From a virus (Duplodnaviria; Caudoviricetes), in the IMG/VR virus record IMGVR_UViG_3300001517_000002, positions 32,001 to 96,000 of that record: a stretch of DNA of 64,000 nt; one strand, written 5' to 3'. The notes beneath the pieces are model-generated. The model searched no databases. It had not been told where the DNA came from and saw only the letters and a list, made by a program, of their open reading frames with translations. Shown piece after piece: positions 31,551-46,075 of this stretch (the stretch's first letter is position 1; the number at the start of each line of letters is the position of its first letter). A program made the position numbers and the translations under genes.

Positions 31551-31776
31551 TTTTTGTTATCTCCTTTTAATAAATTGGTGCGTTCTTACATATCGTTGCA
31601 ATGCTTAAACGCATAAACGGGGAGGCAACCTCCCCATAGGAGGAAATAAGTATTATGATGATGTCAGTAAATATAACTTGTGGCTTTGCAGGACTTATCC
31701 CGAATACCTACTACTGCAAGTACAGCGGAGAGGCGGTTTTCATCTCTCGTAGAATCCTAAAACTCTACCCTCTATT

Positions 31777-31853
31777 TGGTGAGCGTAGGGAGATTTGAAC
31801 TCGCCATTACGACCTTGAAAGGGTCGTGTCCTTACCTATTAGACGATACACCC
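31777..31853 (-). tRNA. tRNA-Glu (TTC)
   Basis: GGGTGTA/TACGCTC acceptor, anticodon arm CGACC-CTTTCAA-GGTCG, TTCAAAT T-loop, encoded CCA. Confidence 0.92.
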
Positions 31854-32206
31854 ATAATGCGCACCTTTACATTGTACTGTAAACGGTATAATGCGCAATA
31901 TACAAGCACGAAAATCAAAGCGATACCTGTGCGCACAGACAACGCAATGCAAGAGATGCTTGAAAACTCTTTCCTTGAAAGACCTACCATGGTACGCTTG
32001 TAACAGAGGCGTGGTAGGTACATTAGTGCTCGTAAAGAGCTGAGTCTTATATAGTGCCAGTTAATGGCTCTGTTGTACCACAAATCTTGCTCATGTGACT
32101 TAACACAAGGTTACTGTCTGCGGTATACTTTAATAGCAAATACCAAGAAACTAAGCGCAACGCAAGCATTGAGCTTACAAAGAAGGTAAGTGCAATTCTT
32201 TTATAT
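31854..32206 (-). ncRNA. Candidate ~350-nt multi-stem structured RNA between two tRNAs
   Basis: No credible ORF or RBS; many local and long-range helices (see findings). Confidence 0.55.
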
Positions 32207-32282
32207 TGGCGGTCACGGCAAGACTCGAACTTGCGACCAACGGTTTAACAGACCGCTGCTCTACCAACTGAGCTACACAACC
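32207..32282 (-). tRNA. tRNA-Asn (GTT)
   Basis: GGTTGTG/CGTGACC acceptor, GCTC-AGTTGGTA-GAGC D-arm, GCGGT-CTGTTAA-ACCGT anticodon arm, TTCGAGT, CCA. Confidence 0.93.
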
Positions 32283-32362
32283 ATACGCCCCTTTGGGCGT
32301 ACAAGTATATTTTACTTGCCCTTGGTGGCAAGAACTATATCAAAGACCAGCTATTGCCAATC

Positions 32363-32779
32363 TTACAGTCTTATTTTCTCTTGTATCTGAAATGGGACGA
32401 AGCTTGATGCAATCGCATACTTCATTGCTGTCTCAGCAGCGGACTTCTCCACAAAATATACCGTATCAGCAAATGCGTTTTTATTGTCAGAATATTTCAC
32501 CGCTTCGCCTATCATTACACCGTCATCGTAAACGGCAACCATTATGTTCCCATCTCCGCTACGGGCTTCTGCAATTTCTTTATCAAATCTTGCACAACTA
32601 TCGTAATCAAAAGCAATTGTATTACCATTAATAGTTTTGCCATTCATACTTGCGGCAAACCCCTGATAATCCTGATAATTTATAATTACGCCAGAACAGC
32701 CGTTCTGCATTACAGATAACAAAAGGTCAGTTGTAAACTCATCATAATTTCCGTATGTTTTGTAAGAAGCATTTACCAC
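32363..32779 (-). CDS. Hypothetical protein
   Basis: 138 aa, AGGAGAG RBS, co-oriented. Confidence 0.6.
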   Translation of the reverse strand: MVNASYKTYGNYDEFTTDLLLSVMQNGCSGVIINYQDYQGFAASMNGKTINGNTIAFDYDSCARFDKEIAEARSGDGNIMVAVYDDGVMIGEAVKYSDNKNAFADTVYFVEKSAAETAMKYAIASSFVPFQIQEKIRL

Positions 32780-34266: not shown

Positions 34267-35688
34267 TTATAAGCTAATTGCCGTTCCGCTATTAACACAT
34301 ATAACCTTTGTGCTTTTATTCTTCTTTGAATATTCATCCTGTAATTCCTTGCAGAACTTTTCCTTGTCATTGAAATTTGAATGAACAATCGCAATCTTAT
34401 TACAATCTATGTTAGAATAATACTCAAGCATTTGATTATGTTGTATGTGACTTGAAAAGCTATTTAATGTTGTGACATACGCTTTGTTAGGCACAACCTT
34501 GCCATCAATTGTAATAGTTTTTTGCATACTATTTTTTATCTTATCAGCAAGACTACCATCTGCGCTGTAACCACAAAATACAAAGTGATTCTTTGGGCTA
34601 CCTAAAAGTTTCTGCGCCCACGACACTGACCTTCCAGCAGACATCATACCGCTACTCGCCAATACAATACAGGACTCATTTGTTTCCTGTAACGCTTTGC
34701 TATCTGCATACTCACTGATAAAATGTACATTCTTCCAAATCATAACCTTTTCCCAAACGTGCATTTGTTTCTCGTTGACAATATGACACATCAATTTACA
34801 AATCTTAACCGCCATAGGTGAGTCAACATATATCTGGGTATTGAAGTTTTTGTCATTACCATATATCTCATATAGAACTGTAAGAATAGTTTGACATCTA
34901 TGATTTGCGAAAACAGGAAACAATACCTTACCACCCTTTTCGACAGTCTGTTCAATAACAGTCTTAATTTTGTCAATATCAATCTGTCTGTCTTTGGGCT
35001 TTATCTGTCTCTTAGGATTTGCGTATGTTGCTTCAGCAATTACTAAGTCCGCATTTAAAACAGGCTCTAATGGATGAACATAATAACAGGGGACAGAAGT
35101 GTTTCCTAAATCAGAAGTGTAATAAATCTTTTTGGTCACATTATTATGTGAAACCCATAGTTCAATATGAGCCGCATTTGTAATATGTCCGCTATGAGAA
35201 AAGCGTATTGTCACACAATCATCAATTACATTTTTTTCATTAAATGGTAGCTCTACCATTTTATCAAGTGTGGCTTGTACATCTTCCTCGGTGTATAAAG
35301 GCTCTACTGAATGACCTGTACGATTAAGAAACTCTGCGTCCTTATCACATATATGACAACAGTCCTCCATAAGAATACGCATAAGGTCAAAGTTGTCTTT
35401 GGGGATATATATACTGCCTGTAAATCCACGCTTTACAAGAAGGGGAAGAAGATTGCAATGGTCACTATGAGCATGACCAACAAACACAGCTTCAATATCC
35501 TTTGCTTTAAAATCAAACTTAGCAGAATTAATTTTGTATTCTTCCCATGTTGACTTAGATGACTGATGTAAACCGCACTCAAAAAGATACTGTTTGTCCG
35601 CTACTGTTAGTAATGTACGAGAGCCAGTAACCTCAGTTGCATTAGTACCACAAAAAGTTACTCGCATAGTATTTTTACTTTTTGCCAT
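34267..35688 (-). CDS. MBL-fold beta-CASP ribonuclease
   Basis: VTGS, HAHSDH, GH, EATY, ASSGM..AGR, FSSH motifs. Confidence 0.88.
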   Translation of the reverse strand: MAKSKNTMRVTFCGTNATEVTGSRTLLTVADKQYLFECGLHQSSKSTWEEYKINSAKFDFKAKDIEAVFVGHAHSDHCNLLPLLVKRGFTGSIYIPKDNFDLMRILMEDCCHICDKDAEFLNRTGHSVEPLYTEEDVQATLDKMVELPFNEKNVIDDCVTIRFSHSGHITNAAHIELWVSHNNVTKKIYYTSDLGNTSVPCYYVHPLEPVLNADLVIAEATYANPKRQIKPKDRQIDIDKIKTVIEQTVEKGGKVLFPVFANHRCQTILTVLYEIYGNDKNFNTQIYVDSPMAVKICKLMCHIVNEKQMHVWEKVMIWKNVHFISEYADSKALQETNESCIVLASSGMMSAGRSVSWAQKLLGSPKNHFVFCGYSADGSLADKIKNSMQKTITIDGKVVPNKAYVTTLNSFSSHIQHNQMLEYYSNIDCNKIAIVHSNFNDKEKFCKELQDEYSKKNKSTKVICVNSGTAISL

Positions 35689-46010: not shown

Positions 46011-46075
46011 TGCAGAGTAGTCGCCCTAAATAGGGCGATTAATGCAGCCAGTCAGACGGTTACAAGCCCGTGACT
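46009..46075 (+). ncRNA. Twister self-cleaving ribozyme, circularly permuted (type P5-like)
   Basis: AAUGCAGAGU, P1 hairpin AGUCGCCCU/AGGGCGAUU, UAAUGCAGC, P4 loop GGUUACAAGCCC; both pseudoknots (AC:GU, GC:GC) can form. Confidence 0.85.

Follow-up and report, generated by a model that had tools for sequence, protein, structure and literature searches.

A toxin-less abiF-like RNA hairpin between two phage tRNA genes as a candidate AbiF-antitoxin decoy

AbiF is a widespread abortive-infection toxin that is silenced by its own hairpin RNA and has been proposed as the ancestor of Cas13. The hairpin, which serves as the antitoxin RNA of AbiF/Abi_2, is filed in Rfam as abiF RNA (RF03085) and is known as RCd22 in C. 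difficile and as AbiFr in Prevotellaceae. The Pectobacterium phage PhiTE is said to carry an RNA mimic of ToxI, the antitoxin of the ToxIN system; this pseudo-ToxI was reportedly described by Blower et al. in 2012. RNA anti-CRISPRs (Racrs) are solitary CRISPR-repeat mimics in viruses (PMC10651486). By binding AbiF directly, the abiF-motif RNA RCd22 neutralises this toxin in trans; what counts here is the structure of the stem and not its sequence (bioRxiv 10.1101/2025.04.15.648962). Reviews on the mechanism of AbiF and the abiF-motif RNA are available (PMC13064643, PMC12737573).

The hairpin described here lies in the genome of a phage. The analysed stretch, called the window, has 64,000 nucleotides and a G+C content of about 35%, and corresponds to bases 32001-96000 of a complete IMG/VR virus record of 113,447 bp with direct terminal repeats. 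The TerL protein is 44% identical to the TerLs of SPbeta-like Bacillus phages. An RNA array on the minus strand is bordered on one side by genes of DNA metabolism (exonuclease, beta-CASP nuclease) and on the other side by packaging genes, which encode a zinc-ribbon protein of 63 amino acids, a putative small terminase subunit of 367 amino acids, TerL and the portal. The same gene order was found in a prophage of Hominimerdicola aceti Sanger_31 (Clostridia). Because of this related prophage the hosts of the phage family are probably gut or rumen Clostridia, and we take the window phage to be a complete 113-kb SPbeta-like phage of such bacteria. The prophage (L265; NZ_JAOQJZ010000001.1, about 48-56 kb) belongs to the phage family of the window. 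It carries an abiF-type hairpin as well as homologues of the exonuclease, of a protease-like gene and of a gene of 953 amino acids, and would offer a cultured host for work on such hairpins. Two further features of the window were observed. A gene with Beta-Casp, Lactamase_B and RMMBL domains, resembling RNA nucleases of the RNase J/CPSF type, is located 2 kb upstream of the RNA array (34267-35688, minus strand), and a type-P5 twister ribozyme is found in the rightward early region (46011-46071, plus strand; 55.5 bits, where the gathering score is 37.6).

Within the array, a spacer of 353 nt (31854-32206, minus strand) separates tRNA-Asn from tRNA-Glu. Both tRNAs, named in an earlier sequence-only reading of this DNA, are real according to ARAGORN and Rfam. 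The tRNA-Asn (GTT; 32207-32282, minus strand) has an encoded CCA and scores 69.1 bits, and the tRNA-Glu (TTC; 31777-31853, minus strand) scores 51.8 bits. About 22 nt upstream of tRNA-Asn, a consensus scan revealed a putative promoter-like site, TTGCCA-16-TATACT (32304-32331, minus strand), which is a consensus match only, with 10 of 12 positions. For comparison, 73 relative loci were gathered via TerL homology and extra relatives with a sequence pattern from the 3' part of the spacer (module D, see below). No open frame is kept in register among the relatives, and the 92-codon frame of the window spacer is shortened to 56 codons in the 94% identical locus L002. The spacer is thus non-coding, as had been assumed. 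Since it also lies between tRNAs of the same strand and downstream of a promoter-like site, it is plausible that tRNA processing could excise a spacer RNA. In a DNA search of cultured phages, the matches were confined to the tRNAs.

Structured elements were also observed on either side of the two tRNAs. At 32283-32345 (minus strand), upstream of tRNA-Asn, two hairpins overlap the promoter-like site and covary among the relatives. The first occurs as CTTGCC/GGCAAG, CTTCCC/GGGAAG or CTTGCG/CGCAAG, the second in variants of ACGCCC/GGGCGT. Directly 3' of tRNA-Glu, about 105 nt (31672-31776, minus strand) form a conserved structured element in which relatives show compensatory changes from GUAGAGUU/GAUUCUAC to GUAAUCUU/GAGAUUAC and from GAGAG/CUCUC to GUGAG/CUCAC. 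A possible long-range CUUG/CAAG pairing in this element covaries as CAAU/AUUG. It has no Rfam match at E<=10, and its position recalls, by analogy, ribozymes that trim tRNA 3' ends. At 31576-31613 (minus strand) we noted a hairpin in the shape of a tRNA minihelix with a TGCAACGAT loop that ends in CACCA. A minihelix-type element stands in for tRNA-Asn at the head of the array in several relatives (L193, L320, L323, L324 and L326).

The most conserved part of the spacer, termed module C (31982-32018, minus strand), resembles abiF RNA. It consists of CCUACC A CGC CUCUGUUACAA GCG UACCAU GGUAGG U and is present as a single copy in the 113-kb genome. What had been read as a 10-bp stem is a real stem, for which compensatory changes are found among the relatives (ACCTACC.../...GGTAGGT); it has, however, two paired parts of 6 bp and 3 bp that are separated by a bulged A and a 6-nt internal loop. 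With the 1-nt bulge, an apical loop of 11 nt and the internal loop on the 3' side, this is the architecture of the abiF motif. A search against Rfam, as the sequence-only reading had proposed, left the spacer blank at the gathering threshold. Below it, RF03085 was the sole non-tRNA match at E<0.01 in the spacer region, with 29.0 bits against the gathering score of 37 (E 1.8e-4 per genome) and an alignment that covers the model positions 1-37. The shortfall is due to the differing apical loop. Hairpins with differing stems at the syntenic site score similarly (window 29, L002 30.2, L003 29, L007 28.1 and L018 28.5 bits), and the hairpin of the same family in the H. aceti prophage reaches 38 bits, which is over the threshold. 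The cut-off is not sharp, since a true AbiF-adjacent motif in E. ruminantium scores 36.7 bits and falls under 37. Module C is probably a divergent relative of abiF RNA; as its 29.0 bits are under the curated 37, we do not file it as a member of RF03085.

The pairing of module C was then compared between phages. Among 22 distinct phage hairpins none of the 9 pairs is lost, which partly follows from their selection by a scan that requires pairing. Six of the nine pairs covary, with double changes in 40 cells. This covariation was reached by none of 500 shuffles, and slid controls paired in 20-50% of the cells. The outer stem occurs as CCUACC/GGUAGG, CCUUGC/GCAAGG, CUCAAC/GUUGAG and CCUCAC/GUGAGG. 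In a structure-aware scan, the same architecture appeared in every listed locus of a large clade with about 68-69% identical TerL; these listed loci have fully paired copies throughout, and in this clade two copies stand directly after tRNA-Asn. A covariance model made from the phage hairpins alone detected an Abi_2-linked motif in L164 (19.8 bits, E 0.045), where a Pfam Abi_2 gene lies 20 nt downstream of it. The likeness extends into the 3' tail, a part beyond the Rfam model. Module C is followed by UCUUUCAAGG (31972-31981, minus strand), which is similar to the tail of Abi_2-linked motifs, and other phage copies with the tails UCUUUCAA and UCUUUUAA also resemble the AbiF-linked tail. Among the Abi_2-linked matches listed, position 2 of the tail is C in 57/62 and position 4 is U in 57/62, as in UCAUUUAAU.

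The core of the hairpin was searched in 185,579 species genomes with the pattern CACGCCTCT-N7-GCGTACCAYG, which yielded at least 120 loci. The outer six pairs, left unspecified in the pattern, are perfectly complementary in 117 of the 120 bacterial matches listed. Among these matches, the first downstream open reading frame is a Pfam Abi_2 gene in 30 of 53 cases. With a home-made HMM, built from the Abi_2 open reading frames in this first downstream position, Abi_2 was detected directly downstream of the core in about 62 of 102 assessable loci, i.e. those among the matches listed that have at least 1 kb of downstream sequence. Given the paired outer stems and the Abi_2 gene directly downstream, the core including the UACCAY internal loop represents a subtype of AbiF antitoxin that belongs to Clostridia and Bacteroidales. 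Of 101 genomes sampled from the family of H. aceti, 16 carry Abi_2, and in one of the 16 an AbiF-linked RNA shares the A-CGC...GCG-UACCAC core. The lysogen that carries the related prophage has no Abi_2. The loops of the 62 Abi_2-linked motifs (L195-L314, matches listed) were inspected as well. They always end in AU, and conservation extends to the four letters that follow the hairpin. Covariation is seen between loop letters five and nine (C..G in 38, U..A in 21 and A..U in 3 motifs), which implies an extra short helix in these loops, capped by a triloop and missing from the Rfam structure line.

In the window phage only the RNA half of such a type III toxin-antitoxin system is present. The downstream neighbour of module C is tRNA-Glu and not an Abi_2 (PF07751) gene, and in all six frames of the phage genome no Abi_2 was detected at E<=1. 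Likewise, no Abi_2 was found in 50 related phage records, 13 of which are at least 90% complete, or with the HMM in the 73 TerL-derived loci, and none of the 50 related records has retained a toxin fragment. The phages thus have a core identical to that of AbiF-linked RNAs in host-related bacteria and lack the effector. In viral contigs in general, the core pattern is linked to Abi_2 in 15 of 112 loci. A tRNA on the same strand lies within 300 nt of the core in 45 of these 112 viral loci, compared to 2 of the 120 bacterial matches listed. With a generic abiF pattern, 114 of the 120 viral matches listed were perfectly paired and 3 of the 120 had an Abi_2 gene. In 37 of these 120 listed loci the motif is followed at a distance of 3-9 nt by the start of a tRNA; other downstream genes in the generic-pattern viral loci encode portals, terminases and lysins.

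The window copy differs from the Abi_2-linked copies in its apical loop, CUCU-GUUAC-AA. The bulged A and the CUCU start are present and the pair within the loop is kept as G-C. However, the loop ends in AA, whereas all 62 of the 62 Abi_2-linked copies of the subtype among the matches listed end in AU, and the triloop is UUA instead of mostly AAC. No Abi_2 adjoins any inspected copy of this 'CUCUG...CAA' loop class (L235, L327 and the clade of the window). When the window loop class, CANGCCTCTGNNNCAAGC..., was searched in 401 genomes of the H. aceti family, we obtained one real match, toxin-less and in a prophage-like setting, and one chance match inside a gene. The window copy is also placed differently, as it is single and lies in the middle of the spacer, 128 nt from tRNA-Glu, whereas the tRNA-abutting position is common elsewhere. 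It might be tuned to an AbiF subtype that was not found here, be a derived decoy, or serve another partner, and its divergence could reveal which letters AbiF really reads. A stand-alone abiF-like hairpin was observed in L327 (G406:C19:3255-3305), with the stem GCGCGGC, the loop CUCUGAUGCAA and the internal loop UACCAA. A terminator-like hairpin is found on either side of it and an HNH endonuclease gene follows closely; the region is rich in G+C and prophage-like, with no Abi_2 within 3 kb.

A decoy is the simplest reading of the same single-stranded letters on a covarying stem in a genome with no toxin. We propose, with a probability of roughly 0.57, that the core of the spacer is an AbiF-antitoxin decoy that is released by tRNA processing. 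The spacer would be a modular non-coding RNA that is co-transcribed with tRNA-Asn and tRNA-Glu, and the RNase P cut at the 5' end of tRNA-Glu together with 3' trimming of tRNA-Asn would set it free. The placement in a tRNA operon would give strong expression and ends that are defined by RNase P and by 3' maturation. Module C would act as a toxin-less, divergent copy of an abiF-type antitoxin RNA. In the host, AbiF, an HEPN RNase of the Abi_2 family, would be kept inactive by its own upstream hairpin RNA. When the supply of the host antitoxin fails, the phage hairpin would bind AbiF in trans and hold it inhibited, and this inhibition during infection would block abortive infection.

Alternatively, the modules including the abiF-like hairpin might be elements for the processing or stability of the tRNA operon that have no role in defence. 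They could be guides for RNase P, Z, Y or J, or protective hairpins at 5' or 3' ends, and the abiF likeness would then reflect common descent or the reuse of a stable fold. That the motif in viral contigs often precedes a tRNA 5' end by 3-9 nt fits this explanation, as do the tRNA-like minihelices at the same loci in relatives, the exchange of modules like parts of a processing cassette and the lack of module C in some relatives. However, a generic structure has no need for the exact CUCU, bulged A and UACCAY of the AbiF-linked RNAs in the host family. In addition, the stems vary freely while the single-stranded letters are fixed, which fits recognition by a protein. We consider it unlikely that the hairpin is a processing element without a defence role.

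The sequence-only reading had taken the whole spacer for a single large and ornate RNA, possibly belonging to a new class, that is held together by long-range helices and a possible pseudoknot. The region is dense in hairpins and adjoins tRNAs, as GOLLD and ROOL do, and all hairpin and helix words that had been quoted are present in the minus-strand sequence. However, the 353 nt fold at -94.2 kcal/mol, compared to -86.6 +/- 5.0 kcal/mol for 100 dinucleotide shuffles, and 8 of the 100 shuffles do at least as well; the z value of the whole region is only -1.54. From the comparison of relatives, the spacer is instead a chain of small, self-contained and swappable modules, A, B, C and D, which are mixed freely.

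Module A (32124-32206, minus strand) is a self-contained unit enclosed by a stem. It folds better than shuffles when taken alone (z -2.5) and was found in L002 by nhmmer and in L324 and L326 by eye. In these last two loci it is joined straight to module D, without B or C, and has another outer stem than in the window, GACTGC/GCAGTC. Module B (32019-32123, minus strand), delimited by comparison of the relatives, has an outer helix and the hairpins GCCA..TGGC and GCTC TTTAC GAGC. It is common only to L002, L006 and L016 and folds alone at z 0.0. The 15-mer of the GCTC-TTTAC-GAGC hairpin was tried as a lead and dropped, as its about 100 viral matches are, by a rough estimate, at chance level. Module D (31854-31981, minus strand), likewise delimited by comparison, has three local hairpins, the last of which, between two TGCGCATTAT words, abuts tRNA-Glu +1. 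It is common to L002, L007, L009, L193, L320, L322, L323, L324 and L326 and alone folds at z -2.25. Compensatory changes were found in 7 of 19 predicted pairs of module B (4 sequences) and in 5 of 41 pairs of module D, a within-module support that rests on few sequences. Patterns of modules B and D matched close relatives only.

Among the 73 TerL-derived loci the full spacer is matched only by L002. Its 3' half is matched by L007, L009 and L193, its middle by L006 and L016, which have B and C' without D, and about 50 nt of its centre by L003 and L004. Modules C and D occur without A and B in L193 and L007. In L193, L320 and L323 they are preceded by unrelated units and by tRNA-like minihelices that replace tRNA-Asn. 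In L322 module D is present and the central hairpin (module C) is not, and since L324 and L326 also lack it, module C is dispensable. The extra relatives gathered with the module-D pattern serve as natural deletion variants. We regard A, B and D as conserved folded units beside module C on the basis of this comparison and assign no role to them.

The comparison also separates the local from the long-range pairings of the sequence-only reading, for which a covariation analysis had been suggested. The local helices are compensated, with GCCA/TGGC changed to GTCG/CGAC in L016 and TTTACA/TGTAAA to TTTAGA/TCTAAA in L007 and L193. In contrast, the long-range helices CGCAGACA/TGTCTGTG, GCAAGA/TCTTGC and ATGCTTG/CAAGCAT are not kept, and each links modules that are found apart in relatives, as in the combinations A+D (L324/L326), C+D (L193/L007) and B+C' (L006/L016). 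The pseudoknot AACAGAG/CTCTGTT is broken without compensation in L002 (loop CTCTGAT), its partner is absent in L007 and L193, and the alignment of L003 and L004 has no AACAGAG at the place of module B. Although module A and module D, taken singly, fold better than their shuffles, these comparative data largely refute a single ornate RNA, which we now consider very improbable.

Another explanation is that the hairpin serves as the cognate antitoxin of an unrecognised phage toxin in a complete, divergent type III-like system. Many genes of this phage belong to no family, and a conserved neighbour of 138 amino acids has no Pfam or PHROG match. However, this protein is entirely devoid of histidine and therefore cannot carry the HEPN Rx4-6H motif, and no HEPN motif was found in it or in the neighbouring 367-amino-acid protein, which resembles a small terminase subunit with a zinc ribbon. 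With the six-frame search negative for Abi_2 at E<=1 and with genes downstream of the motif that vary between phage families, such a system is highly improbable. Equally improbable is a decaying, functionless remnant of a captured AbiF locus. AbiF systems do occur on phages and prophages, as in C. difficile, where the system is prophage-borne, and Abi_2 follows directly in 15 of the 112 viral loci. However, phages with TerLs that are only about 68-99% identical preserve the hairpin through compensatory changes, no toxin fragment is left in any of the 50 records, and the way in which the motif repeatedly and precisely adjoins tRNAs in unrelated viral contigs speaks for selection.

In the literature that was searched in full text, which did not include the AbiF/Cas13 paper, we found neither toxin-less phage abiF motifs nor a link to tRNA arrays, nor any description of phages that naturally counter AbiF with a copy of its RNA; abiF is absent from the main text of Weinberg 2017. 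If the decoy reading is true, a 37-nt RNA antidote is present in the tRNA operons of many phages from the gut, the rumen and the environment. This would account for some of the non-coding sequence in phage tRNA clusters that has had no explanation so far, and would add a class of RNA-based anti-defence elements beside the Racrs and pseudo-ToxI. A more far-reaching idea, which we hold to be doubtful, is that phage tRNA operons double as anti-defence RNA islands. Each unit located between the tRNAs, whether A, B, D, a minihelix or the abiF copy, might then be a separate decoy or effector against a different RNA-guided or RNA-restrained defence, freed by the tRNA-processing enzymes of the host, and the 'CUCUG...CAA' loops might be a super-binder evolved by the phage or a version that resists cleavage by AbiF.

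Compared to the known systems, the window hairpin is closest to abiF RNA. They share the 6-bp and 3-bp stems with the bulged A, the 11-nt loop with its CUCU start, the 6-nt internal loop on the 3' side and the trailing U. The inner core and the internal loop of the window copy are identical to those of AbiF-linked copies in Clostridia and Bacteroidales. A pair within the loop is kept in both, as G-C in the window and as C-G, U-A or A-U in native abiF RNA. The window copy differs by its 29 bits against 37, by the loop end AA instead of AU and by another triloop. Whereas abiF RNA resides in the 5' leader, the window copy lies in a tRNA operon with no abiF gene downstream or elsewhere in the phage, and it is one copy compared to the two of RCd22. 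With GOLLD and ROOL the spacer shares that it is non-coding, of phage or prophage origin and located beside tRNA genes. The earlier comparison with these RNAs did not hold, because the spacer has separable modules and no conserved global architecture. In Rfam, GOLLD and ROOL gave no match in the window at the gathering threshold or in 31600-32450 at E<=10.

The general idea of a phage RNA decoy is already precedented by pseudo-ToxI and the Racrs. Pseudo-ToxI is, as reported, a toxin-less phage look-alike of a type III antitoxin RNA that is able to neutralise an abortive-infection RNase, and the window hairpin may be its analogue. The toxin ToxN, however, is not the HEPN protein AbiF, and the fold consists of tandem pseudoknot repeats. 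Moreover, the activity of pseudo-ToxI reportedly arose in escape mutants, whereas the window element is fixed, widespread and located in tRNA arrays. Like a Racr, module C would be a small phage RNA that imitates the RNA with which a defence nuclease is partnered, while the nuclease itself is absent. As AbiF has been proposed to be ancestral to Cas13, the logic is parallel. A Racr imitates a crRNA repeat and causes Cas proteins to be misloaded, whereas the mimic in the window would keep the toxin inhibited.
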